NCBI GenBank assembly: GCA_046542845.1
Contig: JBKHAN010000007.1
Coordinates: 2,744-66,743 of the forward strand
Direction of reading: 5' to 3'
DNA from: Spirochaetaceae bacterium
Lineage (GTDB): Bacteria; Spirochaetota; Spirochaetia; DSM-27196; SKKC01
Length of the DNA: 64,000 bases
How positions within the stretch are numbered: position 1 is the first letter of the stretch; every line of letters begins with the position of its first letter. Below are positions 1,967 through 58,083 of the stretch, piece by piece. Both the position numbers and the translations under genes were made by a program. Below the pieces are notes generated by a model. That model was not told the DNA's origin, did no database searches, and saw only the letters and a list, made by a program, of their open reading frames with translations.

Positions 1967-2078
1967 GGTTCGCAGGAGTATAGGAACGGGGGAACAGGGG
2001 TGTCAATGTGGAAGCGGATCGGGACGGTGTGTTGCCCCGGCACACAGCGAGATGCTATTGTTCCGTCGGTCAAACAAC

Positions 2079-3056: not shown

Positions 3057-3058
3057 TT

Positions 3059-5152: not shown

Positions 5153-5733
5153 TCAACAGTCTCGAGGGAACGCTCAGTTCACACGGAGCTGATTTTGTGA
5201 GACTGAAGGTCGGCGGTTTGGAGTTTCACCTTGAGACGTCGGAGCAGACGGTACGCTCACTTCCGAACACTGGTTCTGAGGTCCGGCTTCTGACCTATCT
5301 GTACGTACGTGAAGACATGCTGAGACTCTACGGTTTTTCCCGGGAAATGGAGCGCTCGCTTTTTCTGCAGTTGCTGACCGTGAGTGGAATTGGGCCCAAA
5401 CAGGCGCTCAAACTTCTTACAGCTGCACCTGCTGAACGCCTGCTGGGAATGCTTGAAAGCGAGGACGTCGACGCGCTCGCTTCGCTTCCCGGCCTCGGGA
5501 AAAAAACCGCGGGTAAGATAGTGCTTCAACTACGCGGAAAACTTACCCAGGATACAGAATCCGGCGGTGGGACCTGGGATGATCTGGTGTCCGGCCTTGT
5601 TGAGATGGGGTACGATAAAGCGCACGCTACGAAAGCCGTGCAGCAGGCAGCCGCCGAAGCCGCCTCCGAAGGCGTCGAGGGCGCGGCGCTCGAACGGGAT
5701 GTATTCCGACGTGCGTTACTTTCGCTGGGGTAG
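5149..5733 (+). CDS. ruvA: Holliday junction branch migration protein RuvA
   Basis: MINSLEGTL..., HhH motifs (LLTVSGIGPKQALKLL and LASLPGLGKKTAGKIVLQL) and a C-terminal domain III. It overlaps the ruvC stop by 4 nt. Confidence 0.9.
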   Translation: MINSLEGTLSSHGADFVRLKVGGLEFHLETSEQTVRSLPNTGSEVRLLTYLYVREDMLRLYGFSREMERSLFLQLLTVSGIGPKQALKLLTAAPAERLLGMLESEDVDALASLPGLGKKTAGKIVLQLRGKLTQDTESGGGTWDDLVSGLVEMGYDKAHATKAVQQAAAEAASEGVEGAALERDVFRRALLSLG

Positions 5734-5739
5734 GTGGGG

Positions 5740-6777
5740 ATGAACGATTTTGAAGACGGCATTCTCAACAGCGACATGCGCGACGATGAACAGTTTGAAG
5801 TGCGTCTGCGCCCACAGAGGCTCGAAGAGTTTCAGGGCCAGACAGCGGTTAAGGATAACCTCAAGGTTTTTGTGTCGGCGGCGCTCGGTCGACAGTCGGC
5901 TCTGGATCATGTCTTTTTAAGCGGCCCTCCCGGCCTGGGCAAGACGACGCTTGCCGGAATACTTGCTCAGGAAATGGGAGCAGAATTCAAGGTAACCTCC
6001 GCACCCGCTCTGGAGAAGCCCAAGGATCTCGCCGGATTGCTCACGTCCATGAGCGACGGAGCGCTTTTTTTTATCGACGAGATACACCGCTTGAAGCCGG
6101 CGATTGAGGAGATGCTTTACATCGCCATGGAAGACTACGAACTCGACTGGATTATAGGCCAGGGACCGGCTGCCCGTAACATTCGTATCCCGCTTCCGCC
6201 GTTTACCCTGCTTGGTGCCACAACGAAACCGGGAAAGGTAGCGGGTCCACTCTACAGCCGTTTTGGCATTACCGTTCGACTTGAGCTGTACAGCGAAGAG
6301 GAGATTCTCCTTGTTCTACACCGCTCAGCAAAACTGCTTGGCATACCATGCACCGACGAGGCGCTTCGCATGCTCGCTCGAAGCTCGCGCGGAACACCTC
6401 GCGTCGCCAACCGTCTGCTTCGGCGTGTCCGGGACTTTGCAGAGGTTCTCCACGACGGAACCATACAGGCATCCGTGGTCGAACAGGCACTTGAGCGGTT
6501 GTATATAGATTCCATAGGCCTCGAACGACACGACAGGGAAATACTCAGGACCATTATCAAGAACTACGGTGGAGGCCCGGTCGGAGCTGAAACCCTCGCG
6601 ATATCAGTCGGTGAATCGATAGATACCCTCGAAGACTTCTATGAACCGTATCTGATCCGCAGCGGGCTTCTGAAACGGACACCACGAGGTCGGATGGTTA
6701 CACCCCAGGCATACGTGCATCTGGGCATTCCGCAACCGGGAACACAGGACAATGGAAACGAACAGCTTCTCTTTTGA
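5740..6777 (+). CDS. ruvB: Holliday junction DNA helicase RuvB
   Basis: [12 protein letters not shown], Walker [12 protein letters not shown], Walker [10 protein letters not shown] and sensor GATT...SRFG. I prefer ATG 5740. The track starts at GTG 5734, directly after the ruvA stop. Confidence 0.9.
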
Positions 6778-13511: not shown

Positions 13512-13568
13512 AGGTTAACAAAGCGCCCGCCGTCCACTATGATACGGGCAGCTATGCAAGGAGATTCT

Positions 13569-35696: not shown

Positions 35697-38396
35697 TCAG
35701 CTCTTGAGCACCGGTTCTATGGCTTTCACTTCGTACTTGTACTGGTGATCTCCGACAGAAAAATCAAGCACGTCGCCGACCCTGTGATCGTACAGCGCCT
35801 TGCCGAGGGGTGACTGATAGTTAATAACCCCATGCTCCGGGTCCGACTCCCACGGGCCGAGTATCGTAAAGGAAACGGTCTCGTTCTTTCTGATATCGAA
35901 CAGTTCAGCCTTCGTTCCGAAAGAAATCACTTCGGTGTCTACGTCCTGCGGACGCACGATTGAGACCCGCTGAAGATCGTCGGTCAGGCGGGCAGCATCG
36001 TTGTTCAATTGCTCCTGACGCTCTTTCGCTGCCTTATACTCGGCGTTTTCCTTCAGGTCACCGTATTCCCGCGCCGCAGCAATCTCCTGTGAGTTCTTTG
36101 GAACCTCGACGGAGTGAATGAGTTCAAGCTCCTTCTGCTTCGCTTCATAGCTCGACGCGATGGTCATGAAGCCACCCCGGCGCACCGTTTCGGGTCCCTG
36201 ATCACCGTAAAAACGGAAATCCGGGAAACGTTTGATTACAATATTCTTAAGATCCAGGCCAATGGTCGGGTCAAGTCCGGCAACGTCTTCAACGAGCGTG
36301 TAGATGCGTTGTATGGACTCTTCGTCCACCGTCTCAAGCGCATCAGCAAGCCTTCGTTCCTTGAACAGGAAGGTCTGCACCTGCCGGTTGATACGCCGGT
36401 TCTCCGTGACGTCCCGTCGATTCTCAATGTCCCGGAAGGTGAGGTCCAGGATGTGCACCAGGTTAATAAGCATTTTTTCGTAACTGAGACCAATCGCCTC
36501 GTACCAGGGGATCTCTTCGCTGTGGCGAGCGAGCCATACAAAGGCTTCGCGATAATCCCGGTAACCGTCGGCAATCTGTCGGTAGATCTTATGCAACGCG
36601 TCGGTCTTGCCGGCTGCTTCAAGATCGTCGAGTAATTCCTTGCTGAGATAGTGCGGAAATACATGGACAAATATTGTGTCCCACTCGGAATGATGCTTTC
36701 GAAGCTGTCGCAGAAACGACTTGCGAATGTCGGCGTTCGCGATGTTTCGAAAGATCTCTTCGATGTTCGACGCGTGTTCAAGATAGTCTTCGAACGCAAG
36801 ATTCACGCCCGGATTCAAATACGGATGCTCGGAAATCACGCGCTGCAGCACCAGGACACTTCCGAAGGTATACTCATTGACCTCGGAGACAGACCGGAGA
36901 TATCCGGTAAAATAATCGACCATCTCGCGAACGAATTCTGTATCACTCGCCTCAACATCTCCACGTTCGACGTAGCGAAGGAACTCGAACAGGGTTTTCG
37001 CGCGGTCGAAGAAGCTCTTTTCGGCTTTGAAGCGGTTATACATTTTTTCTTCAAGGGTGATGGGCTGCTCGCGAACCGAATAGCTGTCCACCTTGTCCGG
37101 GACGTTCCAGAAGCGCTCATCCGTCTTCAGAATCTCCCGCGCGCGCGTGCTCCAGCTCGACCACTCACCCTGGGTGAGGATAGATGGGACGAGCTCGGCT
37201 TTGATCGCTTTCATATCCGCAGAGTTGTTCATACTGCGTATTATGATCTCAAGCGCCCAGTCCGGATTCTTCTTTACTTCCTTCCGCAAGCGGTCTTTCT
37301 TTCGTGTTGTCTTGAGTACCCAGATATGGTCCTTCGGAAGTACGGTGAGCGCACTCACCGCCATCTTCAGGGACATCGTATGATTTCTTCGTTTTACAAA
37401 GTCGATGGTGATCTCGTCGTCGTCTATACCCCGGATCAGACCGACACCCCAGCTTCTGTGAAACACGAAATTCCCGGCGTCAAAAGCGATGTGCTTCTCG
37501 AAATCGGCTATAGCATCGTGAACATTGCGCCAGCCCTGATTCAGATTGCTGAGTTTTATGTATTCGTCGAGGTGGCTGTGGTGCGAATAAAGCTCACGAT
37601 AGCACTCGGTGATCTCTTTCCGGGCCCAGGGATTCTTCGCATCGTACGTGAGGACACGTTTCAGGATTGTGATCGCGGTCTGATAATCTTCTTCCTGCCG
37701 AAAATGCGGGTACAGATCCTCAAGAAGCTGAATCGCGCGCTCTTCGCTCAGGGCACGAGAGATTTTTCGCTCGGCGTGGAAGAAGAACTCGGTCTCACCC
37801 AGGGAATCTTTAATGAGCTTGTGCCAGATTTCCTTGATGTTGGAGAACGACTTCTTTGCGATGTACCGGTGCAGCGCTTTCTTGTAGTAACCAAGCGCTT
37901 CTTCAGGGAGACCCTTCTTTTCCTTGTATTCGGCGAGCTGTTTAACAATATCTGCTTCGTCAAAATCGATGCGTATCAGGCGCTCCCAGGTCGCGTACAT
38001 CTCGTCGACCATATTGTCGTTGTTGTAGCTGTCTGCCAGCGTCCTCAGGGCGAACTTGTTTTCGCCATGGTCGAGTATGCGTTCACAGAGGTACCTGACA
38101 ATTGCCCACTTGTGATTGTCGATAAAAATTTCGATCAATGAGACCAGATTCGCATCGTCGACATTCTGGCGTCGGATCTTGATCCTGCCCGATATGTACA
38201 GCGCGATAATGCTGTTTTTGGTGTGGTGCAGGTGCTCGTTGCACAGTTCGAGCACCTCGTCTGCCTGTTCCTTGTCCTGTATTTGTTCAATGAGCTTATC
38301 CAGTTCGCTGAAATTTGCTACCGTGTAGTTATTCAGGGTTGCTCGGGTCCATTTTTCTTCGTTCAGTAGCTCAGTAATTCGCTCAGTCAGCTGCAT
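35697..38396 (-). CDS. greA: Long-form transcription elongation factor GreA (~740-aa N-terminal extension + C-terminal GreA)
   Basis: The C-terminal ~155 aa is a complete GreA (AAAREYGDLKENAEYKAAKERQ...SFGTKAELFD...SPLGKALYDHRVGDVLDF). I moved the start to ATG 38396 (MQLTERI...), with AGGAG (complement of 38405-38409) about 8 nt upstream. The track start is 38444. Confidence 0.85.
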   Translation of the reverse strand: MQLTERITELLNEEKWTRATLNNYTVANFSELDKLIEQIQDKEQADEVLELCNEHLHHTKNSIIALYISGRIKIRRQNVDDANLVSLIEIFIDNHKWAIVRYLCERILDHGENKFALRTLADSYNNDNMVDEMYATWERLIRIDFDEADIVKQLAEYKEKKGLPEEALGYYKKALHRYIAKKSFSNIKEIWHKLIKDSLGETEFFFHAERKISRALSEERAIQLLEDLYPHFRQEEDYQTAITILKRVLTYDAKNPWARKEITECYRELYSHHSHLDEYIKLSNLNQGWRNVHDAIADFEKHIAFDAGNFVFHRSWGVGLIRGIDDDEITIDFVKRRNHTMSLKMAVSALTVLPKDHIWVLKTTRKKDRLRKEVKKNPDWALEIIIRSMNNSADMKAIKAELVPSILTQGEWSSWSTRAREILKTDERFWNVPDKVDSYSVREQPITLEEKMYNRFKAEKSFFDRAKTLFEFLRYVERGDVEASDTEFVREMVDYFTGYLRSVSEVNEYTFGSVLVLQRVISEHPYLNPGVNLAFEDYLEHASNIEEIFRNIANADIRKSFLRQLRKHHSEWDTIFVHVFPHYLSKELLDDLEAAGKTDALHKIYRQIADGYRDYREAFVWLARHSEEIPWYEAIGLSYEKMLINLVHILDLTFRDIENRRDVTENRRINRQVQTFLFKERRLADALETVDEESIQRIYTLVEDVAGLDPTIGLDLKNIVIKRFPDFRFYGDQGPETVRRGGFMTIASSYEAKQKELELIHSVEVPKNSQEIAAAREYGDLKENAEYKAAKERQEQLNNDAARLTDDLQRVSIVRPQDVDTEVISFGTKAELFDIRKNETVSFTILGPWESDPEHGVINYQSPLGKALYDHRVGDVLDFSVGDHQYKYEVKAIEPVLKS

Positions 38397-38450
38397 GCCA
38401 GTTTCTCCTGCTTTCATCGCCATCATTGCTTCCATTGTCCACATTTATTA

Positions 38451-41160: not shown

Positions 41161-42441
41161 ATGAGAACGACAACAGGGCGAGCTGCATTACTGCGTACGA
41201 TCTGTCTCCTCCTGTTGATGTCGCAGGCTGCGCTTCTGTGGGCATCGGGGGACCGGGAACGCGATGCACCATTCGCTCCTGCATTCGGATCGCTTCCAGG
41301 CTGGGTGTATGAGAGCAGTGAAAACGGAAGTCCATCTATCCGCCTGCAGGAGGAGGCCGAGCCGGAGGCTTTCACCCTCTGGAACCCGGAGATGTCCGAG
41401 GGTCGGCTTCGAATAGATAACATGGTATACAACTTCGAGGATATTCTCGGAGACGATCTGATCGCACGAGCCGGCGGCCTCGAAATCACGTTCGGTGCGG
41501 CTATCGACGACGTGAGTCCGGATTTGAGCCTCGTCGTGATCACAACAGTCCTGGAAAACGCTGCCTCCCGTCCTCGCAGCGTAGGATTGCGGTTCGTACT
41601 GTCGCCCTCGCCACAACGGGAACAGCCAATACGCGCATTTCACCTTGCACCAGGCCTCCCCATAGAACTCGAAGAAACGACAGACGGAGGCACGAGCTTT
41701 ACGCCGCAGAGCCGTATTTTCGAACAGGAAACAAGTTTCGCAGCGGAAAGCAGCGAACAGGTGCTGATTCCGCTCGTCGGTCCGTCTGACTCGTATCGGA
41801 CCACGGCTCCGCCGATTGTCGCCTGGAACATAGCGAACGGCTCGGAAGCAGTACAGTACAGCGTTGCAAACCGAACCCGACTCCTCGAAAGTCCCTGGTC
41901 CTTTCAGACCGGACGAGCTCGTGACTTTTCCGTGGTGCCTGGGGCACCTCCCGATGCAGGCATAGGGATACGCTTCGCCGAACAGACACTCGCACCCGGG
42001 GAGACCGTTTCCTTCGAGTACTCCGTCTATATTCAAAATCAGAGTCCCGCCGTCGCGTCTGAATCGCAATCATCGACCGACGATGAAGCCGTTCCCAGCG
42101 GCGACGCATCGCAAGAGACCGAAACCGAACCGGCTCCAGAGCCGGCCGCCGATGCGTCCGAGGAGGCCGGGGGCGCGGAACCTTTGAGGTCGCCTCAGGA
42201 GGAAGCCGAACGCGAATCAGCCGATGCCGTGGTACCGGAGGACGATAATCAGAGCGCTTCACCGGCAGAAGAGCAGACCGAGCGAGCGTTCACCGAGCTC
42301 AACCGCGAGCTGAACAGACTCCGCGCCCTTCAACAGCGGGAAACACCGCCCACGCAGGAAGAGCTGGATGCAATTCGGGACACCATCGAACGTCTGAGAC
42401 AGGAGCTCGACAATGCGCGCCGGAGTGAAACGCAGGAATGA
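41161..42441 (+). CDS. Hypothetical secreted protein (beta-rich core, acidic tail, C-terminal coiled coil)
   Basis: 426-aa ORF starting 3 nt after the previous stop. It has a signal-like N-terminus (ALLRTICLLLLMSQAALLWASG) and an acidic S/E/A/P-rich tail, ending in a coiled coil (ELNRELNRLRALQQ...ERLRQELDNARR). Confidence 0.6.
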   Translation: MRTTTGRAALLRTICLLLLMSQAALLWASGDRERDAPFAPAFGSLPGWVYESSENGSPSIRLQEEAEPEAFTLWNPEMSEGRLRIDNMVYNFEDILGDDLIARAGGLEITFGAAIDDVSPDLSLVVITTVLENAASRPRSVGLRFVLSPSPQREQPIRAFHLAPGLPIELEETTDGGTSFTPQSRIFEQETSFAAESSEQVLIPLVGPSDSYRTTAPPIVAWNIANGSEAVQYSVANRTRLLESPWSFQTGRARDFSVVPGAPPDAGIGIRFAEQTLAPGETVSFEYSVYIQNQSPAVASESQSSTDDEAVPSGDASQETETEPAPEPAADASEEAGGAEPLRSPQEEAERESADAVVPEDDNQSASPAEEQTERAFTELNRELNRLRALQQRETPPTQEELDAIRDTIERLRQELDNARRSETQE

Positions 42442-43568
42442 AGCAGGAAAGCGCGTTGCGCACCGCTGAGCAGCACTATAGACGGCGACGCTACGCTCAG
42501 ACAATAAGCACGCTTGAACCGCAAATTTTTCTGTACCGCGAGAACGTTTTTTTCTTCCACCTCCTCGGTCTCGCGTGCATGAAGACCGGAGACCTCGGGG
42601 GCGCCCGTTCGTATCTGATGCGGGCCACACAGATCGACGCTGACGCGATTGCTCCGCGACTGGCCCTTGCTGCCTGCGATCTTGGTCGCAGCGACTCAAA
42701 GGAAGCCCTCCAGATGTGGCTCGAGATACTCGACGAAGATCCGGAGAACCGCTACGCACGAAAAGGTCTTGAGCTGCTTCGAAGCGGACTCACCGCGCCT
42801 GATGGTAGCGCAGTGAACGTCGGCGAGCAGATGCACAGGCTCTACCCGGACATCGAAAAGAGACGATACGATCCGAGGACGCTTCGTCTCGCGGGAATTC
42901 TGCTTGCGGTCGCGGCAATTATTACCGCATCGCTTGTGTATGCGCCACGAATCCGCACGCTCGTTCAGGAGCGTGGTCCGTTGCGCGACGGCAGTGAACT
43001 GACGGAGCTCTCAAGACGGAGTGATCTTGTGACGGAACCGGATGCCGACGAGCTCGACGCGTCAGATACACGGTACACGCTGAGCGATGCGGAGATACGC
43101 GAGACGTTTGACAGTCTCAGGACGTACTTCCTCGCCGAACGCGACAACATGGCCGCACGCGAAATAAATCGCATCGTCCATTCAAATGCGCGCGAGACGT
43201 TCAGGAATCAGGCCATCGCGCTTCGTGGCTATCTGCGAACTCCCTCGTTTGCCGATTTTACCGACGGGTTCGACCTTGACGCGGTTCGTTCGGACCCCGT
43301 CCTCTACGATGGCACGTATGTTCGGTGGCGTGGACGGTCGAGCAACCTCGAGGTCACCGACGAACGGGTACGTTTCGATTTCCTGGTGGGGTATGAGGAT
43401 CTCGTCAGCGTTGATGCCATCGTACCGGTCGTGTTCAACCGGGCCGTTCGCCTCGACCCCCAGCTCGCGATCGAACTGATCGGCAGGATACACTCGGATC
43501 CCGACAGCCCGGAGGGGTTTCGGATCGAGGGAACGTCCATACGGCTAATACGCGCTGCCGAAGGCTAG
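42438..43568 (+). CDS. TPR-containing single-pass membrane protein
   Basis: It overlaps the previous stop by 4 nt (ATGA). N-terminal TPR-like repeats (FFHLLGLACMKTGDLGGARSYLMRATQID) are followed by a TM helix (LAGILLAVAAIITASLVYAP) and a ~200-aa C-terminal domain. Confidence 0.6.
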   Translation: MKQESALRTAEQHYRRRRYAQTISTLEPQIFLYRENVFFFHLLGLACMKTGDLGGARSYLMRATQIDADAIAPRLALAACDLGRSDSKEALQMWLEILDEDPENRYARKGLELLRSGLTAPDGSAVNVGEQMHRLYPDIEKRRYDPRTLRLAGILLAVAAIITASLVYAPRIRTLVQERGPLRDGSELTELSRRSDLVTEPDADELDASDTRYTLSDAEIRETFDSLRTYFLAERDNMAAREINRIVHSNARETFRNQAIALRGYLRTPSFADFTDGFDLDAVRSDPVLYDGTYVRWRGRSSNLEVTDERVRFDFLVGYEDLVSVDAIVPVVFNRAVRLDPQLAIELIGRIHSDPDSPEGFRIEGTSIRLIRAAEG

Positions 43569-45218: not shown

Positions 45219-45938
45219 TTAGTCGGCAGCCGTCGAAGAGTCAATCGAAGCTTCTATGCGAGACCTCGCCTCGCGCGCAGCGATCACGACATCGCGATTG
45301 CGTGAGGTCTGCTCGATAAGAACGGTAACGCGGAGAAAAACGCGTTCCGGCAGCATTTCAACCGCCTCGAGCCAGGCAATCACACCCGCTGCTTCATCCA
45401 CCGGCAGTCGGCCGGCGTGTTCGTCGAGCTCACGAGCTATCCGGTGACCCTCGCGCTGAAGACTCAGACGCCAGGTGGAATCGGTTCGCGTTATGGCACC
45501 CGTCCTCAGCAGGACTTCCCGGAGCCCTGAAGGCATCGTCGCCACCGTATCCTGAAACCGCCGCAACGATTCGCCGAGACTGGGCTCCACAGCGTCTCCT
45601 CGCCTCAGTACGGTAAACGCGCCCTCAGCGAGCACGCGCAGGATGTTCAGCCGCTCATGAGCCCGAAGCCCGAGCGTCGCCTCGTGAAAAACGCGAATCG
45701 CACTCGCAAGCTCCCCGGCGTCCCCGCGGGCAGCGATACCGGAGGCAGCCCCGTAAGCCTCGGAAAACGGACCGCGTCCGGCATACAAGCGCAACAGGTA
45801 CACATCGTCGGTGACAGGCGGGTCGGAGGCGTACGCGGTCAGGGGAACGACGCACAGCGCGACAACGATTAACAGAACCGCAATTGACCGGCGTGGGTCC
45901 GAGAGATAGTATGAAGAAAAGAGCAATCGCTCGTTCAT
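45219..45938 (-). CDS. Hypothetical secreted protein
   Basis: 239-aa ORF with a signal/TM segment (IAVLLIVVALCVVPLTAYAS). It is upstream of and co-oriented with prs across a 39-nt gap. I recognise no motif. Confidence 0.55.
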   Translation of the reverse strand: MNERLLFSSYYLSDPRRSIAVLLIVVALCVVPLTAYASDPPVTDDVYLLRLYAGRGPFSEAYGAASGIAARGDAGELASAIRVFHEATLGLRAHERLNILRVLAEGAFTVLRRGDAVEPSLGESLRRFQDTVATMPSGLREVLLRTGAITRTDSTWRLSLQREGHRIARELDEHAGRLPVDEAAGVIAWLEAVEMLPERVFLRVTVLIEQTSRNRDVVIAAREARSRIEASIDSSTAAD

Positions 45939-49130: not shown

Positions 49131-49938
49131 CGAGACGGAAACGATGCGGCTTCAGGTGTATCTCGCACAAGCCGGACTGGGTTCACGCCGTTCATGTGAA
49201 AACCTTATAGACGAGCTCCGTGTAAGCGTTAACGGAGAAATGGTATCCCGGCATGGTGTACGTGTCAGCGACGAAGACGTTGTAAAAGTTGACGGGAAAC
49301 AGGTCCACCGCACAAAGAAAAGCGTCTATCTGGCGCTTCATAAACCCCCGGGTTACCTGTGCGCACAGAGCGACCCCGAAGGACGCCCGCTCGCCGTTGA
49401 ACTCGTACAGTCGCGCTACGGCATGCGCCTGTATACGGTTGGTCGACTCGACTTCAATAGTTCCGGCCTGATATTTATGACAAACGACGGTGACTTTGCG
49501 CAGGCCGTATCTCATCCGTCGAACGAGGTCGAGAAGGAGTACATCGTACAGACCCGTAAACCGGTATCCGAAGAGTTTCTCGAAGCGTGCGTTCGGGGTT
49601 TGAACATCGAAGGTGTGCAGTACCGCTTCACGAACTGGGAACGGGCGGGCTCGAGAAGCATACGGGTCACGCTCCGGGAAGGAAAGAACCGCGAAATCAG
49701 GACCGTGTTTAACCATTACCGCTATGGTGTCAAACGTGTCCATCGCGTCAGAATCGGTCCCGTGAAACTGTTTCGTATGGCGCCGGGACGATTCCGACCC
49801 CTGACGCGTCAGGAGATTAACTGGTTTTTCAAGCAGGCGGGCGTGGCTCCTCCCGGGGACGCCCCGACGCCCGGGGAGAGCTCGGATAAAGCCCCGCGTA
49901 AAAAACAGGTACGTGTTCGCAGAGGGAAGACAACGTGA
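49117..49938 (+). CDS. rluB: Pseudouridine synthase, RsuA/RluB family
   Basis: S4 domain (MRLQVYLAQAGLGSRRSCENLI...V.VNG), the catalytic motif YTVGRLDFNSSGLIFMTNDGDF, and KEY.V. A basic C-terminal tail follows. Confidence 0.85.
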   Translation: MARNDETETMRLQVYLAQAGLGSRRSCENLIDELRVSVNGEMVSRHGVRVSDEDVVKVDGKQVHRTKKSVYLALHKPPGYLCAQSDPEGRPLAVELVQSRYGMRLYTVGRLDFNSSGLIFMTNDGDFAQAVSHPSNEVEKEYIVQTRKPVSEEFLEACVRGLNIEGVQYRFTNWERAGSRSIRVTLREGKNREIRTVFNHYRYGVKRVHRVRIGPVKLFRMAPGRFRPLTRQEINWFFKQAGVAPPGDAPTPGESSDKAPRKKQVRVRRGKTT

Positions 49939-50597
49939 TCGTGGCGATAGACGGACCGGCAGGAAGCGGTAAAAGCACAATCGCAGAGCGCTGTGCGCAG
50001 GAAGTCGGATTTGCCTACGTGAACTCGGGACGACTCTACCGGGCCGTCACCCTGTATGCGCTGAAAAACGGCATAACCAGCGACGCGGACCGCATTGTAC
50101 CCCTGCTTTCGGCAATCAGCATAGAAATCGCAGGATCCGACATCCTGTTGAACGGTCATATCGTTTCCGACCGGTTGCACGACGACGAAGTCGACCGCTG
50201 GGTTCCTCAACATTCGTCCCTGCCCGAAGTACGCACCTACGTTAACACCAGGCTGCACGACATAGCACGGCAGGGAAATGTCGTGGTCGAAGGTCGCGAT
50301 ATAGCGACCGTCGTGTTTCCCGACGCCGAGGTCAAAGTTTACCTGGACGCGTCCATCGAAGCACGGGCGCAGCGAAGATACCGGCAGGGGACGAGCGAAC
50401 TGACCTATGAACAGATATACAGCTCCATCGAACAGCGCGACGAACTCGACCGGAACAAACAGATCGGACGGTTGAGACAATCCAAGGACGCGACATATAT
50501 CGACACCTCGGACTTGACCATAGATAAAGTTTGTGACAAGGTATTGAGCATTATCCACGGACATCTCGAATCTTCAGGAAAAGTACATAAAACATGA
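49935..50597 (+). CDS. cmk: Cytidylate kinase
   Basis: VAIDGPAGSGKSTIA...A...GF.YVNSG.LYRA and VVEGRDI.TVVFPDA..K.YL.AS.E.RA.RR. The GTG start overlaps the rluB stop. It has the classic cmk-rpsA arrangement. Confidence 0.88.
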   Translation: MIVAIDGPAGSGKSTIAERCAQEVGFAYVNSGRLYRAVTLYALKNGITSDADRIVPLLSAISIEIAGSDILLNGHIVSDRLHDDEVDRWVPQHSSLPEVRTYVNTRLHDIARQGNVVVEGRDIATVVFPDAEVKVYLDASIEARAQRRYRQGTSELTYEQIYSSIEQRDELDRNKQIGRLRQSKDATYIDTSDLTIDKVCDKVLSIIHGHLESSGKVHKT

Positions 50598-52300
50598 GCG
50601 ATAGTCAGTCTAGTCAAGGCGCAGGCGCGCCGCTTCAGGAACAGCTTCAGGAACAATATCTCGACCACCTCGATCAGCTCGAAGAAGGGCAACTGGTCGA
50701 GGGCATAGTTATCGAGGTCGGACCCGAACAGGTCTTCGTCGACGTCGGATACAAGTCCGAAGGCAAGATCGATATTTCGGAGTTCAGAGAACTCCCGAAA
50801 GTCGGCGACAGCGTAGAAGTTGTGCTGGTAAACAAGGAATCCCGTTCAGGCGAAGTCATTGTTTCCAAGAAGAAAGCAGACGAGCGGGTCTTCTGGAAGA
50901 CCATGAAAGAGGCGGCGGCCGAGCATCGTGCGGTGCCGGGTCGGGTCAAGCGCGCCATAAAGGGCGGATTCGAGATTGATCTCGGTCACGACGTGCGCGC
51001 ATTCAATCCCATCTCAAAGATGGACCTTCATCGCATTAACAACCCCGAAGAATACGAGGGCATGGATACGTTCTTTTATATTGAACGTCTCTACAGCGAC
51101 AACCGGGTTAATATTGTACTCAGCCGGCGCGACTGGCTCGAAGAGACCGTCGAGAAAAACCGAAACCAGTTTTTCGAGAATGTCAGCATAGGCGACGTCG
51201 TCGAAGGAACGATTAAAAGCTTCACCAGTTTTGGCGCTTTTGTTGATCTGGGTGGTTTTGACGGCCTGCTGCACATAAACGATATGAGCTGGGGACATGT
51301 CACGCGTCCCAAGGACTACGTCAAGAAAGGCGACAAGATCGAGCTGAAAGTGATCCGCATGGATCCCGAGGCGAAGAAGATAAATCTCTCGCTCAGACAC
51401 ATGACCGAGGATCCATGGTCCCAGTTCGAAGAGAAGTACGCAGAGGGCGACATTGTCGTTGGCCACGTAACGAAGCTCACCGAATTCGGGGCTTTCATTG
51501 AGCTCGAAGAAGGAATTGAAGGTCTCGCTCATATCTCCGAGCTTTCCTGGACACGACGCATTAACCACCCGAAAGAAGTACTCGATGTCGATCAGGAAGT
51601 AGAGGTTAAAATACTCGCTTACGATCTTCAGGAAGGAAAGGTCAGTCTTGGTGTCAAGCAGGCAATGCCCAACCCATGGGATCACATCGAGCATATGTAC
51701 CCGGAAGGCCTTCGCCTGATTCGTCCCATCAAAAAGCTCACGAACAGCGGAGCGTTTGTGGAACTCGAAGAAGGCATCGACGGATTTCTTCACGTGGACG
51801 ATTTGAGCTGGACCAAGCGGTACAAGCATCCGAGTGCCATCCTTCAGGAAGGCGAAGAAATCGAATGCATGGTCATACGCAGCGATTCAAAGAATCGGAA
51901 TGTGCGTTTAGGCATAAAGCAGCTCTCCGAAGACCCCTGGGACAGTCTAAAGAAAGCCTACCCCGAAAACACGGTCATCGAAGGCGAGGTAACGAATATT
52001 ACCGATTTCGGCGTCTTCCTTCGAGTACAGGGCGGCATCGAAGGTCTTATTCACAAGGCGGCGCTTGTCGATCCGCGGCAGGAGTCCTACGAAGACGCGA
52101 TCAAGAAGATCAAGGTCGGAGATTTCCTCCGGGCAGTGGTCGTAGAGCTGAATACTGCCAAGCAGAAACTCGGACTGTCTGTCAGGGAACTCGAGCGTCT
52201 CGAGCAGCGTCAGGAGCTCGACAAGTATATTCACGAGGACGACGACGACAGTGCGACCATTACGCTCGGCGATATTCTGAAGGACAAAGACTCCAACTGA
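50594..52300 (+). CDS. rpsA: 30S ribosomal protein S1 (six S1 domains)
   Basis: Six repeats of the S1 motif (G.VV.G.V......GAFVDLG...GL.HIS). One example is VEGTIKSFTSFGAFVDLGGFDGLLHINDMSW. The ATG overlaps the cmk stop. Confidence 0.92.
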   Translation: MSDSQSSQGAGAPLQEQLQEQYLDHLDQLEEGQLVEGIVIEVGPEQVFVDVGYKSEGKIDISEFRELPKVGDSVEVVLVNKESRSGEVIVSKKKADERVFWKTMKEAAAEHRAVPGRVKRAIKGGFEIDLGHDVRAFNPISKMDLHRINNPEEYEGMDTFFYIERLYSDNRVNIVLSRRDWLEETVEKNRNQFFENVSIGDVVEGTIKSFTSFGAFVDLGGFDGLLHINDMSWGHVTRPKDYVKKGDKIELKVIRMDPEAKKINLSLRHMTEDPWSQFEEKYAEGDIVVGHVTKLTEFGAFIELEEGIEGLAHISELSWTRRINHPKEVLDVDQEVEVKILAYDLQEGKVSLGVKQAMPNPWDHIEHMYPEGLRLIRPIKKLTNSGAFVELEEGIDGFLHVDDLSWTKRYKHPSAILQEGEEIECMVIRSDSKNRNVRLGIKQLSEDPWDSLKKAYPENTVIEGEVTNITDFGVFLRVQGGIEGLIHKAALVDPRQESYEDAIKKIKVGDFLRAVVVELNTAKQKLGLSVRELERLEQRQELDKYIHEDDDDSATITLGDILKDKDSN

Positions 52301-52339: not shown

Positions 52340-53851
52340 ATGCTCTCAGAAAACGTTGATCTTCGACGGCTGGACACGCTTATAGAGATTAACACTCTCA
52401 TAAACAGTGACTACAGCGACCCGAACGCACTGCTCACACGCATAGTCGAATCTGCAACTCGTCTTACCGAGGGTGAGGCGAGTTCCCTCCTGCTCATTAA
52501 TCCCGACGACAACAAGCTCTACTTTGAGGTTGCTCTTGGTTCCAAAGGAACCGAAGTTCAGCGTTTCAGTCTGAATAAAGGGGAAGGGATCGCGGGCTGG
52601 GTGGTCGACAAGAATCGCAGCCTCATCGTAAACGACGTCGAGTCCGATACGCGGTTTTTTTCCAACATAAGCAAGGCAATAGGTTTTTCGACTCGGAACA
52701 TACTCGCTGCACCCATGCGCATCCGTGAAAGCTGCGTCGGTGTACTCGAGATCCTGAACAAAAAGGATGGCAAGAACTTCACCGAAAGTGATCTGTGGTG
52801 GCTCGAGATTTTTGCGAACCAGGCTGCCCTGGCCATACAGAACGCGAGATCCTTTCAAAAAGCCCGAGATCAGATTGATTTTCTGAGCGAGCAGGTGCAG
52901 GAATCCCAGGGATACCACACCTTCGTCGCGGAGAGTCCCGCGATGCTTGAGAAACTCGATCTGGTAAAGCGCGTCGCCCCGACTGACTCGTCGGTATTGA
53001 TACTCGGCGAAAGTGGCGTCGGCAAAGAACTCTTCGCGGAGCAGCTTCATTTAAACTCCCGGCGCGCCGACCGCCCGTTTGTACGGGTGAACTGCGCCGC
53101 TCTTCCGGAGTCGCTGCTCGAAAGTGAACTGTTCGGCCACGTAAAAGGTGCCTTTACAGACGCGAATCGTGATCGGATCGGACGTTTTGAGCTCGCAGAC
53201 GGCGGAACGATCTTTCTCGACGAAATAGGGGAGCTTCCCCTCGCTTTGCAGGCGAAGCTCCTGCGCGTGCTTCAGGAACGGACGTTTGAGAAGGTAGGTG
53301 CCAGTGAGCCGAAAAACGTCGACGTTCGTATCGTTGCCGCCACTAACCGCGACATCGAAGTTGAAGTGTCGGAAGGCAGATTTCGACGGGATTTATACTA
53401 CCGCCTGAATGTGCTTCCACTGTATATCCCACCCCTCCGATCACGACCCGAGGACATACCGGGACTTGCACGATTTTTCCTGAAGCGCCTGAATCATGAG
53501 ACCAAGAAGCAGATTCGCGGCTTTTCGAACGAGGCGATCGAGCAACTGCTCTCGTATTCCTGGCCCGGCAACGTCCGCGAGCTCGAGAATGCCGTCGAGC
53601 GTGCGGTTGTGATAACTCGGGGCGATGAGATATCACCCGAGGATCTTGTCCTTCAGCGAAGCTCAAGCGACAGCACACGATATGCGGGAAACAGTCTGAA
53701 AGATGCGGTAAATTTATTTAAGAAACAGTATCTACGTGCTACTCTCGAACGGTGCGACTGGAATCAAACTATTGCAGCAAAAGAACTTGGAATTCAACGG
53801 ACGTATCTTTCCCGGCTCATTAAGGAGCTTGAAATATCGCGTTCAGATTGA
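52340..53851 (+). CDS. Sigma-54-dependent transcriptional activator (GAF - AAA+ - Fis-type HTH)
   Basis: N-terminal GAF domain (..GIAGWVV......IVNDV..D.RF.......[11 protein letters not shown]......[18 protein letters not shown]). The AAA+ core has GESGVGKE, a GAFTGA-position loop reading [16 protein letters not shown] and RVIAATNRD. The C-terminal HTH is [22 protein letters not shown]. Confidence 0.88.
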
Positions 53852-53884
53852 ACCACATGATATTGATAGGAGTACATAATAATA

Positions 53885-54577
53885 ATGAAATCGACGGATG
53901 AACGAACGGCACGCGAGCGCTTTGTGGATGCACTCAGCGGCTTTCTGCAAAGGCAGCGAAAACCGATTCTCGCACTGACGGTCATTGTGCTTGCGGGCAT
54001 TGCAGGCTTCGCGGTCTACGCAGAAATCAGAAACCATCGCGCAGAGGAGGCTCTGGTCCAGCTGGAGGACCTGCAGACCCGCGTGGATGAGCGACAGGGG
54101 CTTGAGGAAGACGAGAGGACGGAATTCGATGAGGACGTGCTCGGTGAGCTGAACGATCTGATCGATCGCTACCCCGGAACGTATGCCGCACAACGATCCC
54201 TGTTTCTCAGCGGCATCCTTTATATGGAACAGGAGAACTTCGAAGCAGCTGCCGATTCTTTCGGACGTCTCGCCGACCGGTTTCCCGAGGGCCATCTCGC
54301 ACTGATAGCCCGTGCAAACGAGGCGACTGCGCATGAAGAAAACTCCGAGCCCGAAGAGGCCATGGACGCCTACCGACAGCTCCTCTCGATGCGGCCTGAT
54401 TCGAGTCCCCTGACTGCACGCGCGTTGTTCTCGCTTGGACGTCTCAGCGAACGTCAGTCCGGCGACGGCGACGACCCGAGAGATTACTATGAGCGCATTA
54501 TAAACGAGTATCCGCAGAGTAACTGGACAACTCTGGCACGAAACAGACTCCTCGCGCTCTCTACGGCAGCACCGTAG
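53885..54577 (+). CDS. Membrane-anchored TPR-like protein (YfgM-like architecture)
   Basis: 230 aa. A short cytoplasmic N-terminus is followed by one TM helix (ILALTVIVLAGIAGFAVYA) and a helical TPR-like ectodomain (YAAQRSLFLSGILYMEQENFEAAADSFGRLADRFP). Confidence 0.55.
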   Translation: MKSTDERTARERFVDALSGFLQRQRKPILALTVIVLAGIAGFAVYAEIRNHRAEEALVQLEDLQTRVDERQGLEEDERTEFDEDVLGELNDLIDRYPGTYAAQRSLFLSGILYMEQENFEAAADSFGRLADRFPEGHLALIARANEATAHEENSEPEEAMDAYRQLLSMRPDSSPLTARALFSLGRLSERQSGDGDDPRDYYERIINEYPQSNWTTLARNRLLALSTAAP

Positions 54578-54603
54578 AGTCAGCACATCAGTCTGACACC
54601 GGT

Positions 54604-57036
54604 ATGAAGGGGGAGACCATGGCCGATCAAAAGACGCAGAGCAGGAAACGGAGATCCAGAACCTGGAAACGATTCCGGGAGACCCGGAATTTTGGCCCTT
54701 TGATCGGAGTTTTTGTATTTCTCGCACTACTCGTCTTCACGACTGTGTTTCCCGTCATCCCCGATCGCCTTGAACTCTCCGTGGTGGATTTTAATTTCAA
54801 CCTCCGACAGTTTACGGGAACCACGCGGCTGGAGGAGGGTGTCGTACTCGCCGAGCAGAATCCGGCTATCTCCCCCGATATACTGATTGTAGGTGTCGAT
54901 TTCAACGCACTGCAGCGCTTCGGTAACTGGCCGTTTCCACGCGCGAGACACGCAGACCTCGTGAACTCGTTCGCACGCATATCGGACCAGACTCAACGTG
55001 AAAACGCAGTCTTCCTCGACTTTTTCTTCATAGAACCTGTCGCGGAGGCTTTTAACGACGCTCTGCTCGTAGACGCAATGATCGAGAACAGACGCGTGTT
55101 TCTCGAAACAGTGCTCGAGTCATCGCCACCTCCTTCGGGGCTGGAGAACGAACTCTTTGCACGACACGACGTTCTTTTTGACCGACAGGGTCGTTTCGGG
55201 ACGATAGCCGGCGACTGGCAGGAGGTTCCCGGGAACGATGGACTTCAGCCGCCCCTGCAACCCTATGGAGCAGCGTCCGCAGGGTTTGGCCACGCGAATT
55301 TTTCCTCCGATATTGATGAGGTTTTTCGGCGTCAGGCACTCGTAGCCAAATCGTCGGAACTGCTCGGTTTTGTCTTTCTGGAAGACCTGGAGCCGGGCAT
55401 AGAACTCATAGACGAGAGCGTTTTCGAGCGTCTCGCATGGGTGGATCGGTCCGGGCGCGAGCACCAGATTCGAATGCCGATCACTGAAGAGTCTCTCGCT
55501 TCACTGCGAGCCGAAATGGAAGCGGAAGCGCCGCCACGACGCGTAGAACTCGACGACGGCACTGAAGACGACGTATTTCTGATCCGGGTCTACCGGGACG
55601 AGTTTGTGCCCTCGATCACGCTATCACTTGCCATGAATTACTGGAATCGGAGTCCGGAGGAGGTTGATGTTCATTTCGGTGAGCACATCCGGATTCCCGA
55701 GCCTCGCGTCTATAATCCCGAAACCGATAGCCTCGAACCGTATCGCATACTCGAACGCCCGGAACGACGGGATGAGGACGGTGAGATTGTTGAGGAAGCA
55801 CGGTACCGGGACGTTCCCGAGATCCTTATCCCGATCGACGAACACGGAAACATGACCGTTAACTTTATGGGACCTCGGTCGAGTGCCACACGGGGCGAAT
55901 ACCAGACCTTTCCCGTGCGCAGCTACAGCGGATACGCGTCAAACCCACCAGGTGCCTTGAGTGAACGCTGGCCGCGGACACGGGCGGTGCCGAACAGCAT
56001 TATCATGGTCGGAGCCTTCGCTCCCGGTATGGCGGCCGATGAGCTCACAACCCCTTACGGCCTCATGTACGGTATAGAGGTGCATGCGAATGCGCTCAAT
56101 ACCATTCTTATGGACAACTTCCTGAGAAACGCACCGTCCTGGTTGAACACTCTGATTCTGTTCGCTGCGTCCGTGCTTATCGCGTTCGCCTCGTCACGGC
56201 TGCCGACGGGCTGGGCTCTTGGAATTCTGATCGTTGGCATACTCGGATTCTTTATCGTAAACAACCTGTATCTGTTCGATTCCGCCGGCATGATCGTCGA
56301 TTTTGTTATCCCTGTTACCGGAGCCACGCTCAGCTTTCTCTCGGTAGTCGTATACCGGATTGCGACCGAAGAGCGGGACAAACGGCGCCTGCGGGAAATG
56401 TTCGGGAAGTACGTAAGCCCGCACGTCGTCAGCGATATTATGAACAATCCTCCCGAGCTCGGTGGAACGGATAAGGAACTCACCGTGATGTTCAGTGATA
56501 TTCGGGGCTTCACGACCTTGTCGGAAAGCATGACGCCGCAGGAACTTGTAAATCATCTCAATCTGTATCTGACTGCGATGACTGATATAATTCTTGAGTA
56601 CGAGGGAACCCTCGACAAGTACGTCGGCGACGAGATCATGTGCTTCTGGGGAGCTCCGATTCCACAGGAGGATCACGCGATTCGAGCGTGCCGATGCGCT
56701 CTGAAGCAGATGCAGGCCCTCGATCAGTTGAACGAGGGCTGGGAGCCTGAGCGGCGCATCAACTTTGGAATAGGGATTAACTCCGGGATCATGACCGTTG
56801 GAAATATGGGGTCTCCCGGACGCCTTAACTATACGCTTATGGGAGACAACGTGAACCTCGGAGCACGGCTTGAAGGTACGAACAAGCAGTACCGGACAAC
56901 CTGCATTATCAGCGAATACACCTACGGACTCGTTAAGGACAAGGTCATAGCCCGTGAGCTCGACAACATTCGGGTCAAAGGAAAAAACAAGCCTGTCCTT
57001 ATCTACGAGCTCATCGATATGGCGGATGCTGTATAG
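54604..57036 (+). CDS. CHASE2-domain sensor adenylate/guanylate cyclase (class III)
   Basis: A TM helix (IGVFVFLALLVFTTVFPVI) is followed by a ~430-aa extracytoplasmic domain and three TM helices. The cyclase domain contains VMFSDIRGFTTLSE, LDKYVGDEIMCFWGAP, GINSGIMTVGNMGS and YTLMGDNVNLGARLEG. An alternative start is ATG 54619, behind AAGGGGGAG. Confidence 0.85.
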   Translation: MKGETMADQKTQSRKRRSRTWKRFRETRNFGPLIGVFVFLALLVFTTVFPVIPDRLELSVVDFNFNLRQFTGTTRLEEGVVLAEQNPAISPDILIVGVDFNALQRFGNWPFPRARHADLVNSFARISDQTQRENAVFLDFFFIEPVAEAFNDALLVDAMIENRRVFLETVLESSPPPSGLENELFARHDVLFDRQGRFGTIAGDWQEVPGNDGLQPPLQPYGAASAGFGHANFSSDIDEVFRRQALVAKSSELLGFVFLEDLEPGIELIDESVFERLAWVDRSGREHQIRMPITEESLASLRAEMEAEAPPRRVELDDGTEDDVFLIRVYRDEFVPSITLSLAMNYWNRSPEEVDVHFGEHIRIPEPRVYNPETDSLEPYRILERPERRDEDGEIVEEARYRDVPEILIPIDEHGNMTVNFMGPRSSATRGEYQTFPVRSYSGYASNPPGALSERWPRTRAVPNSIIMVGAFAPGMAADELTTPYGLMYGIEVHANALNTILMDNFLRNAPSWLNTLILFAASVLIAFASSRLPTGWALGILIVGILGFFIVNNLYLFDSAGMIVDFVIPVTGATLSFLSVVVYRIATEERDKRRLREMFGKYVSPHVVSDIMNNPPELGGTDKELTVMFSDIRGFTTLSESMTPQELVNHLNLYLTAMTDIILEYEGTLDKYVGDEIMCFWGAPIPQEDHAIRACRCALKQMQALDQLNEGWEPERRINFGIGINSGIMTVGNMGSPGRLNYTLMGDNVNLGARLEGTNKQYRTTCIISEYTYGLVKDKVIARELDNIRVKGKNKPVLIYELIDMADAV

Positions 57037-57775
57037 GGGAGTGCGGGGCAGGGCGTCGGGCGTTCTCGTGCCGTCCACACTGTTCGTCGTGTGTATGATC
57101 GCCTCATGCGGACTTACTACGGGCGTGCGGGTCATATCACCTCCCGAACGCCGGTCATCGACAATAAACTCGGTGGTCTTTGAACACGCGCTCCCGCAGA
57201 ACGACGATGTCGGCTTTCAGGGATACGAGCTGTACTACAAGATTTACGGCAACAACCAGAGTGAAGCCCAGGAGGCCGATGAAAACGCGATCGAGGGCAC
57301 GAGTGACCCATTCTCCGTGCTGAACGAGCGCGGGTTTCGTCGCTTTCAGCTGGAGGACATCGATCGCGAGCGTCCGCCGGTGATCGCTCATGTGATACCA
57401 CCGGTGGACGAGCCTGTGACGTTCTCACTCGATTTTCTACGCGCAACGGGTCCATCCCCTGAAAGCAATCCGGTCCTTCTGATAGAGCGCGGGGATGCTG
57501 ATCCAGTCGAATACCGTCTGGTACGCACTATACAGGCAGCGCCGGGAGACTTCGGATCCGAGGCGTCGCGTCGAGCGTTTAACGAGCCGGGAGAACCCCG
57601 TTGGCTTGTAGACGGCAGCGACGATGCCGCACCACACGCGGACGTGGATAGCGATTACGACGGAATTTCGCAGGTGTCGATTCTGATCTATGCTATTGGA
57701 CAAGCGCTTGATGTCAACACGCTTACGCCGATTCGCAGTCTCGATGCACTGCAGCTTATAGAGATTGAGTTATAA
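57026..57775 (+). CDS. Putative lipoprotein, unknown function
   Basis: ATG 57026 overlaps the cyclase end by 11 nt. MLYRGVRGRASGVLVPSTLFVVCMIASCG has a basic n-region, a hydrophobic core and a lipobox-like IAS-C. GTG 57041 is an alternative start. The track start at 56954 lies inside the cyclase gene. Confidence 0.55.
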   Translation: MLYRGVRGRASGVLVPSTLFVVCMIASCGLTTGVRVISPPERRSSTINSVVFEHALPQNDDVGFQGYELYYKIYGNNQSEAQEADENAIEGTSDPFSVLNERGFRRFQLEDIDRERPPVIAHVIPPVDEPVTFSLDFLRATGPSPESNPVLLIERGDADPVEYRLVRTIQAAPGDFGSEASRRAFNEPGEPRWLVDGSDDAAPHADVDSDYDGISQVSILIYAIGQALDVNTLTPIRSLDALQLIEIEL

Positions 57776-57789
57776 GGAAAGAACCTCGC

Positions 57790-58083
57790 ATGCCAACACA
57801 AATACTTTCAACAGCGCTTATATACCTCGCTTCAGGACTCTTTGTTGCGATTGTCTACATGTACGTTTTCCGTGCATCCGTTCCCGGAGGTGTTACCGTC
57901 GCACTGTTTGTCGCGGTCACCGGATCATTTCTCGGTGGCGTCCTCGAAGTCGCTTTGCAGGACCTCATACAGAGTCTTCAGGATGTTGCCGGTGTAAATC
58001 TCTTTCCCGCGATACTAACCGCGACGGTGCTGCTGATCGCGTTCGGCGCAACGGGAAGACTGCGGAACGACGACCATGAATAG
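57790..58083 (+). CDS. Small integral membrane protein (3 predicted TM helices)
   Basis: 97 aa with hydrophobic Gly-rich helices (LIYLASGLFVAIVYMYVF, VALFVAVTGSFLGGVL and LFPAILTATVLLIAFGA). It starts 14 nt after the previous stop. Confidence 0.55.
   Translation: MPTQILSTALIYLASGLFVAIVYMYVFRASVPGGVTVALFVAVTGSFLGGVLEVALQDLIQSLQDVAGVNLFPAILTATVLLIAFGATGRLRNDDHE

Follow-up and report, generated by a model that had tools for sequence, protein, structure and literature searches.

The window, a 64-kb stretch (64,000 nucleotides) of contig JBKHAN010000007.1 from a Spirochaetaceae bacterium, encodes a sigma-54 enhancer-binding protein whose N-terminal GAF domain groups, by sequence profile and predicted fold, with the GAF domains that bind cyclic nucleotides. 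Two genes downstream, on the same strand, lies the gene for a CHASE2 sensor cyclase that carries the complete residue set of a class IIIb adenylate cyclase. Together with the conserved and recurrent adjacency of the two genes, these features suggest a direct route from cyclic AMP (cAMP) to sigma-54 transcription in this spirochaete cluster. We assign a probability of about 0.4 to the reading in which the neighbouring CHASE2 cyclase is the main source of the cAMP that the GAF domain binds. The component kinds (group III enhancer-binding protein, nucleotide-type GAF domain and CHASE2 class IIIb cyclase) are all known. An earlier note on this DNA had called a cAMP-gated sigma-54 activator fed by a neighbouring sensor cyclase undescribed, to its author's knowledge, and in line with this our literature search turned up no report of cyclic-nucleotide binding by a sigma-54 activator, through its GAF domain or otherwise. 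To our knowledge, the main route from bacterial cAMP to transcription is through proteins of the CRP family.

The two proteins and their domains are encoded as follows.

52340..53851, + strand: sigma-54 enhancer-binding protein, 503 residues, with GAF, AAA+ and HTH_8 domains (Pfam)
52418..52840, + strand: GAF domain, residues 27-167, assigned by PDB profile match and predicted fold to the cyclic-nucleotide-binding GAF subfamily
52925..53422, + strand: AAA+ sigma-54 interaction domain (PF00158, E = 1e-72; Walker A GESGVGKE, Walker B DEIG)
about 53147-53164, + strand: L1 loop, the sigma-54 contact loop, reading GAFTDA and not GAFTGA
53723..53827, + strand: Fis-type HTH_8 DNA-binding domain (Pfam)
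54604..57036, + strand: CHASE2 sensor and class III cyclase, 810 residues (Pfam; transmembrane segments read from the translation)
54730..56178, + strand: CHASE2 extracytoplasmic domain, residues 43-525 (PF05226, E = 4e-32)
56473..56994, + strand: catalytic domain of class IIIb adenylate cyclase type, residues 624-797 (Guanylate_cyc, E = 4e-23)

The activator GAF domain resembles cyclic-nucleotide-binding GAF domains

We aligned the first 195 residues of 19 activator orthologues and searched the resulting profile against all PDB sequences. This search ranked cyclic-nucleotide binders highest, with 5w10 (Lcd1, cAMP) at E = 8e-30, PDE5 (cyclic GMP, cGMP) at 2e-28 and CyaB2 (cAMP) at 1.5e-25, and then the HD-GYP protein 4mcw (ligand not stated; 5e-23), PDE2A (cGMP; 2e-22) and PDE10A (cAMP; 2e-20). 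Other GAF types followed at a distance, including haem-binding DosS (8e-16) and PtsP (5e-9), as did the GAF domains of the sigma-54 activators Nlh1 from Aquifex (5e-8) and NifA (0.05). The same PDB ranking was obtained when the GAF sequence of the window was used alone as a single query. A search of a representative library with the GAF profile was uninformative, its top 150 matches being giant multi-GAF proteins ranked by summed score.

An AlphaFold2 model of the activator, built on 24 orthologues (pLDDT 84), was compared with known structures using Foldseek. The best match of the modelled GAF domain was again 5w10 (E 2.6e-14, TM 0.76-0.86), followed in order by PDE10A, the HD-GYP GAF, PDE5A, PDE2A and PDE6; the sigma-54 activator GAF of Nlh2 ranked 37th. 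The 5w10 structure is that of the Leptospira interrogans Lcd1 GAF domain with cAMP, a nucleotide that activates the diguanylate cyclase of this GAF-GGDEF protein (PMC8846402, PMC11800159). The earlier note had guessed at a cyclic-nucleotide-type GAF from a motif, and this guess is upheld by the profile and the Foldseek match, which place the whole domain, as aligned and as modelled, in the cyclic-nucleotide-binding subfamily.

The motif in question, NKFDE, marks nucleotide-binding GAF domains without itself contacting the ligand (PMC11977230, PMC4411481). As had been noted, its final Glu is replaced by Leu in the window protein. N140, K141, F147 and D151 are invariant among the orthologues, and the Glu position is occupied by Leu, Ile, Val or Met; cAMP-binding Lcd1, which reads N-R...F...D-L, likewise has Leu there.

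Residues of the predicted pocket were compared in an alignment of the window protein with PDE2A GAF-B, PDE5A GAF-A, Lcd1 and the HD-GYP GAF. The beta-1 Ser (S49), the stacking residue of the GIAG motif (I84) and the Glu that precedes the NK pair (E137) are kept in every orthologue, and A85 is conserved too. Together with T118, the last Thr of helix 4, which aligns with T492 of PDE2A, S49, I84/A85 and E137 align with the PDE2A residues (1MC0) that serve as its ribose-phosphate and stacking contacts; the PDE2A residue numbers agree with the aligned sequence. A Thr occupies the T118 position in 53 of 63 loci with the cyclase and in 0 of 11 without it. We rejected this distribution as a sign of activator-cyclase coupling: the cyclase-bearing loci L128, L130, L138 and L139 share the 'RH..GYP[AS]KTML' signature of the cyclase-less clade, so the substitution is older than the loss of the cyclase and follows phylogeny.

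Architecture of the activator and the cyclase

Pfam searches divide the activator into GAF (residues 27-167, E 7e-17), Sigma54_activat (residues 196-361, E 1e-72), AAA lid and HTH_8 (residues 462-496) domains. Its AAA+ core has Walker A and B motifs, arginine fingers and a sensor II element (PGNVRELEN is among the stretches read in the translation), and with the N-terminal GAF domain and the Fis-type helix-turn-helix it has the make-up of a group III enhancer-binding protein. Orthologues with 60-97% identity are found in many Spirochaetia. The sigma-54 contact loop varies from GAFTDA in the window to GAFTSA in orthologues of a Treponema clade described below and GAFTGA in a Desulfamplus protein; because functional FlgR carries the same G-to-D change at this position (PMC3162934), the GAFTDA loop is, by analogy, probably functional. 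The AlphaFold2 model has one continuous helix, spanning residues 149-190, that runs from the GAF domain into the AAA+ domain. The best NCBIfam match of the protein is a nifA-like family, below its cutoff (439 bits against 529). With the NifA GAF matched only at E 0.05, sensing of 2-oxoglutarate in the manner of NifA finds no support in similarity and was set aside.

The cyclase, as read from its translation, has one transmembrane segment, a periplasmic CHASE2 domain, three further transmembrane segments and a cytoplasmic catalytic domain, an order that fits the layout of CHASE2 sensor proteins. The nearest solved catalytic domains are those of Pseudomonas aeruginosa CyaB (3r5g, E 8e-39) and then Spirulina CyaC (1wc0). 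The stretches FSDIRGF, LDKYVGDE and NYTLMGDNVNLGAR align with both, and supply the two metal-binding Asp residues, the substrate Lys, the Thr found where the substrate Asp would be, and the transition-state Asn and Arg. At the positions of the Lys...Thr pair, the guanylate cyclase Cya2 (2w01) carries Glu...Gly instead. Class IIIb is defined in part by this substrate Asp-to-Thr change (PMC2613629), which bears out, along with the alignment to CyaB and CyaC, the earlier statement that the Lys...Thr pair marks class IIIb adenylate cyclases. By its residues, then, the protein is a complete class IIIb-type adenylate cyclase, and it is predicted to be active and to produce cAMP. All prokaryotic class IIIb enzymes examined to date are responsive to CO2 or bicarbonate (PMC2613629); that inorganic carbon might be a second input to this cyclase, a thought prompted also by the sediment- or lake-like isolate names of the closest relatives, is pure conjecture.

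Conservation of the activator-cyclase block in spirochaetes

The activator and cyclase genes sit in a block with three further genes, directly downstream of rpsA.

50594..52300, + strand: rpsA, context gene directly upstream of the activator gene
53885..54577, + strand: membrane-anchored TPR protein, YfgM/TPR_21-like, 230 residues (Pfam TPR_6, TPR_16, TPR_21)
57026..57775, + strand: putative lipoprotein, 249 residues, its start overlapping the cyclase stop by 11 nucleotides (sequence reading)
57790..58083, + strand: small hydrophobic membrane protein, 97 residues (tblastn across loci)

We examined this neighbourhood from both of its ends. From the side of the activator, rpsA lies directly upstream in all 31 spirochaete genome loci (full-length orthologues, 60-92% identity), and the CHASE2 cyclase is present downstream in Spirochaetaceae-like loci. 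From the side of the cyclase, we collected 80 metagenomic orthologues (48-60% identity), 13 of which were truncated less than 0.75 kb from the cyclase gene. The activator was found upstream in every one of the 67 that had at least 1 kb of upstream sequence, with the TPR gene detected in between in most. Beyond the block, the flank varies by lineage, and contains either mazG and mreBCD or a TPR gene, gcpE and V-ATPase genes, while the block itself remains unbroken.

Some related activators outside spirochaetes are paired with cyclases

The genome scan also reached Desulfamplus magnetovallimortis and a second Desulfamplus, by way of the peptide NKKDGKNF in their GAF domains, an ascertainment independent of any cyclase. 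Their 538-residue GAF activator is 35% identical to the window protein over residues 26-500, and is followed 308 nucleotides downstream by a gene for an 839-residue protein whose adenylate cyclase domain, N-terminal and of the Lys/Asp type, is joined to a membrane segment and TPR repeats (L040, L044, L173). A third genome of this lineage, 77% identical, has the same pair. The Desulfamplus GAF domain has the canonical S...D-x-x-T-x-F-x-T residues, and in the PDB it is matched best by PDE2A GAF-B, the HD-GYP GAF and Lcd1. A word-indexed search with this GAF region alone returned four matches, on contigs that were too short or irrelevant. In two of the Desulfamplus loci (L040 9920-16835 and L173 8001-14247), the activator and cyclase genes are followed by one for a 760-790-residue protein with Ig-like and CsgG/LpoB-like domains.

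This activator family has thousands of members, and at 47-52% full-length identity they occur in Magnetococcales, Nitrospirota and Desulfobulbales. In the Nitrospiraceae chromosome CP070632.1 (L169 6001-13539), the GAF activator gene converges on an operon that encodes a CHASE2 Lys/Asp adenylate cyclase, a 1126-residue FecR-TPR protein, a small protein and a class II-like cyclic nucleotide phosphodiesterase of metallo-beta-lactamase fold. The co-location here of cAMP synthesis, cAMP degradation and a candidate receptor suggests a dedicated module. The pairing of activator and cyclase arose independently in Desulfamplus and Nitrospiraceae, and in all three lineages a predicted periplasmic TPR module is tied to the cyclase, standing alone in two and fused to the cyclase in the third. 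These clusters suggest that the pairing may be a general one and not peculiar to spirochaetes.

As a control we used 50 other activator loci of the same scan, of which one had a cyclase within 10 kb. Activators with this GAF type have a cyclase within 6-10 kb in 3 of 7 lineages, compared with 1 of the 50 control loci (Fisher p = 0.0045), in a comparison that is rough given its small numbers and the differing methods of detection in the two groups. The one control case, with a receiver-type activator and a cyclase on the opposite strand (SAR324 locus L043), was dismissed as chance. Separately, a Nitrospirae contig (L171, BDTC01000043.1) encodes at 4351-6009 a protein with GAF and HD/HD_5 domains that may be a phosphodiesterase of the HD-GYP type; a GAF activator of the Desulfamplus type, with no cyclase nearby, lies 2 kb downstream of it.

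A possible cAMP-gated sigma-54 circuit and its alternatives

In the circuit that we propose, the inner-membrane CHASE2 cyclase would make cAMP on a periplasmic cue, an envelope-signal input that is conjectural. Its sensing may be aided by the membrane-anchored TPR protein, by the small membrane protein and by the lipoprotein, which is coupled to the cyclase in translation. cAMP would bind the activator at its N-terminal GAF domain and, by analogy with other GAF-regulated sigma-54 activators, could relieve inhibition of the AAA+ domain through the linker helix of residues 149-190. In NorR, PexR and Aquifex Nlh2, the GAF domain holds the AAA+ ATPase inactive until the signal arrives. The AAA+ domain would then oligomerise and open sigma-54 promoters elsewhere in the genome. 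Of this chain, our results establish the domain architectures, the GAF subfamily, the intact catalytic residues and the recurrent gene adjacency, whereas the ligand, the sign of regulation, the cue, the accessory roles and the regulon are inferred. More broadly, and tentatively, the window may hold the spirochaete version, with a remodelled pocket, of a family of sigma-54 enhancer-binding proteins that spans Spirochaetota, Desulfobacterota, Nitrospirota and Magnetococcales. Such proteins would be gated directly by cAMP, independently of CRP, through a PDE/Lcd1-type GAF domain, and in several lineages would form dedicated modules together with a membrane adenylate cyclase and a periplasmic TPR component, sometimes also with a phosphodiesterase.

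Several observations weigh against a cAMP-binding GAF domain fed by its neighbour. The helix-4 signature D-x-x-T-x-[FY]-x-T, common to PDE2A, PDE5A, Lcd1, the PmGH HD-GYP GAF and most Desulfamplus-type activators, reads S-x-x-I-x-F-x-T in the window family (Ser111, Ile114). The Asp-to-Ser and Thr-to-Ile changes alter the pocket, and the ligand could therefore differ from cAMP or cGMP; the comparison with CyaB2 and PDE GAF domains proposed in the earlier note shows similarity in fold and agreement at S49, I84 and E137, and a departure at these two positions. The change may be tolerated, since in CyaB2 the equivalent Asp and Asn reach the adenine only via water (PMC4411481). The adjacency of activator and cyclase, which the cyclase-side survey supports, is not universal when viewed from the activator. 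In a clade of termite-gut Treponema, a conserved GAF activator is retained with no adjacent cyclase (11 loci with enough downstream sequence), its GAF region 48-58% identical to that of the window. The order there is a cmk-rpsA fusion, the activator, the TPR protein and a lipoprotein, with rpsA adjoining the activator and the TPR gene kept in most loci. Conversely, L095 and L096 (metagenome Ga0123353) keep the TPR and CHASE2 cyclase genes beside an orthologous activator that lacks the GAF domain (L095 4195-5244; 349 residues, AAA+ and helix-turn-helix only). Activators with the GAF domain deleted in this way are expected to be constitutively active or to be regulated in trans. Moreover, the whole array from scpA through rpsA is syntenic, together with the block, in the loci compared, and the rpsA-activator adjacency, for which no functional link is expected, is as well conserved as that of activator and cyclase; synteny alone therefore cannot prove function, and the conserved adjacency could in part be inherited gene order rather than functional coupling.

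These observations, along with the location of the block in a housekeeping region, speak for a reading with no direct coupling, in which a GAF domain of nucleotide-binding descent would sense another molecule, or only dimerise and inhibit, the cyclase would use other receptors and the adjacency would reflect core gene order. We consider this a serious alternative, if one that falls short of even odds. It sits less well with a GAF domain far closer to proven cAMP and cGMP binders than to other solved GAF types, with cyclase orthologues that always accompany the activator (67/67) while the outer flank rearranges, and with the independent pairings in Desulfamplus and Nitrospiraceae, one of which includes a phosphodiesterase. 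With regard to the Treponema clade, cyclase-bearing loci have activators both closer to that of the window and more distant from it (53%) than those of this clade; because they bracket it in similarity, the cyclase was probably ancestral and lost a single time, as judged from these identities.

Retention of the GAF activator in Treponema-clade genomes without a local cyclase would also be expected if the domain does bind cAMP but reads a global pool to which several cyclases contribute, without the CHASE2 cyclase next to it as a dedicated input. The same can be said of the related activator family outside spirochaetes, where a cyclase is absent within 6-8 kb in 4 of 7 lineages. A further point in favour of a shared pool is the large number of class III cyclases in some spirochaetes, for example Leptospira, in which few receptors are characterised. 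We nevertheless regard a global pool as unlikely, given the strict linkage of cyclase orthologues to the activator locus and the clustering of cyclase, phosphodiesterase and activator in Nitrospiraceae, which suggests dedicated modules.

Finally, the arrow might run the other way, with the activator switching on the TPR, cyclase and lipoprotein genes from a sigma-54 promoter and the cyclase as its output. The genes are co-oriented and closely spaced, and activators often adjoin their target operons. However, the gaps of 26-39 nucleotides are too small for a promoter and an enhancer, and in the window we found no GG-N10-GC element at or around the 3' end of the activator gene, nor a positionally conserved one across about 100 orthologous loci, making this reversal very improbable. 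Indeed, no positionally conserved sigma-54 site of any kind was found in these loci (1.1 Mb in all), where isolated promoter-like matches in L089 and L130 are not conserved, and neither rpoN nor an RpoN box is present in the 64-kb window; both negatives also count against the proposed circuit. Within the window, a search for TGGCAC-N5-TTGCW with up to two mismatches gave 18 matches against 20.9 expected, none above chance, and a weighted GG-N10-GC scan gave nothing upstream of any gene, which agrees with the earlier report that the window has no correctly spaced -24/-12 promoter. We infer that the target promoters of the activator lie outside the window.

If a cAMP-binding GAF activator of this kind is confirmed, it would join cAMP signalling directly to sigma-54 transcription and provide a candidate cAMP receptor for spirochaetes. 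The activator is a single soluble polypeptide and highly conserved, and its isolated GAF domain is suited to a binding assay.

Accessory genes and genomic context

The block forms the tail of a long co-directional housekeeping array on the + strand (47.6-59.0 kb) that runs scpA, scpB, rluB, cmk, rpsA, the genes for the 503-, 230-, 810-, 249- and 97-residue proteins and mazG. The intergenic gaps from rpsA through the 97-residue gene are 39, 33, 26, -11 and 14 nucleotides, and no terminator-like sites were found between the block genes on this strand. The translations and Pfam searches recover all four of the co-oriented, closely spaced genes first described, with the domains attributed to them, and every quoted string (FSDIRGF, LDKYVGDEIM, NYTLMGDNVNLGAR and the GAF NK-F-D stretch) was located in the translations. 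The reported overlap of the lipoprotein start with the cyclase stop amounts to 11 nucleotides (ATG at 57026, stop at 57034-57036), and such an overlap is also present in L001 and L003.

To these four, the gene for the 97-residue small membrane protein adds a fifth member of the block: it was detected by tblastn in most cyclase-bearing loci and went undetected by tblastn in the cyclase-less Treponema-clade loci. The 230-residue TPR protein has an N-terminal hydrophobic anchor followed by TPR repeats (TPR_6, TPR_16 and a YfgM-like TPR_21), and its gene lies downstream of the activator in most orthologous loci, including most of the cyclase-less ones; the protein has no specific homology to the Desulfamplus cyclase-TPR fusion (E = 0.17). 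The N-terminus of the putative lipoprotein, MLYRGVRGRASGVLVPSTLFVVCMIAS-C, fits a lipobox, with a plausible signal that ends IAS-C, and the protein matches no Pfam or NCBIfam family. Its similarity to the Treponema-clade lipoprotein is marginal (E = 0.1); a single F-x-x-[YF]-x-[LI]-Y-Y-[KR]-I-Y stretch occurs at matching positions in both proteins.

The entire window belongs to the housekeeping core of a spirochaete chromosome and includes genes for RuvB, BamA, MutS, NusA, IF-2, PNPase and RecA, among others. Its closest relatives are Spirochaetaceae from metagenomes, with an activator identity of 91-92%, and the names of the nearest relatives' isolates (CSSed..., DLM...) suggest sediment or lake samples. 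Upstream of the block, cmk (49935-50597) and rpsA (50594-52300) are separate genes with a 4-nucleotide overlap, and in the Treponema-clade locus L025 (7568-9976) they form a single open reading frame of 802 residues. Elsewhere in the window, two successive overlapping open reading frames at 1836-3814 (+ strand) match signal peptidase I (Peptidase_S26) and constitute a tandem paralogue pair. At 9171-16154 (+ strand), a gene for a 1446-residue TamB-like protein is directly followed by one for an 871-residue BamA/Omp85 protein with POTRA domains, so that these outer-membrane assembly genes adjoin. A 915-residue protein encoded at 35697-38444 (- strand) has GreA/GreB domains confined to its last 150 residues, and no family was detected in its N-terminal extension of about 760 residues. 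Three open reading frames at 41161-43568 (+ strand) and 45219-45938 (- strand), of 426, 376 and 239 residues, have no Pfam family; the matching positions in L001 and L003, between a TPR gene near rpe and recA, are also occupied by unannotated genes.

Comparison with known systems

The closest parallel to the sensor of the activator is Lcd1 (LIC_13137) of Leptospira interrogans, which is likewise a spirochaete protein, is the best match of the GAF domain, shares the N-[KR]...F...D-L residues and has an N-terminal GAF domain that controls a C-terminal output. That output, however, is the synthesis of cyclic di-GMP and not a sigma-54 AAA+ ATPase, and helix 4 of Lcd1 has D...T...T where the window protein has S...I...T. 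Conversely, the group III enhancer-binding proteins NifA, NorR, FhlA, PexR and Aquifex Nlh1/Nlh2 share the GAF, AAA+ and helix-turn-helix architecture, with NifA, NorR and FhlA given in reviews as the GAF group (PMC7175178) and PexR a further GAF-regulated sigma-54 activator (PMC12754779), but their GAF domains sense 2-oxoglutarate, nitric oxide through iron, formate or peroxide through a metal, and are only distant relatives of the window domain by the E-values of Nlh1 and NifA given above.

The Anabaena cyclases CyaB1 and CyaB2 and the mammalian phosphodiesterases PDE2, PDE5 and PDE10 have GAF domains of the same subfamily with the NKFD(E) motif (PMC4411481, PMC11977230). These domains are arranged in tandem and regulate a cyclase or phosphodiesterase in the same polypeptide, whereas the window protein has a single GAF domain on a transcriptional ATPase. 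On the side of the cyclase, P. aeruginosa CyaB (3r5g) has the closest solved catalytic domain, with identical substrate and metal residues; its sensor is a MASE2 rather than a CHASE2 domain, and its cAMP acts via the CRP-family protein Vfr. The system most similar in overall plan is that of Sinorhizobium meliloti CyaD1/CyaD2/CyaK, NsrA and Clr, in which CHASE2 class III cyclases, an external cue and an envelope helper likewise lead through cAMP to a transcription factor (PMC13001267). There, the receptor is the CRP-family protein Clr and the helper the beta-barrel protein NsrA, in the places that the candidate GAF sigma-54 activator and the lipoprotein and TPR proteins, which are unrelated to NsrA, would take in the spirochaete cluster.

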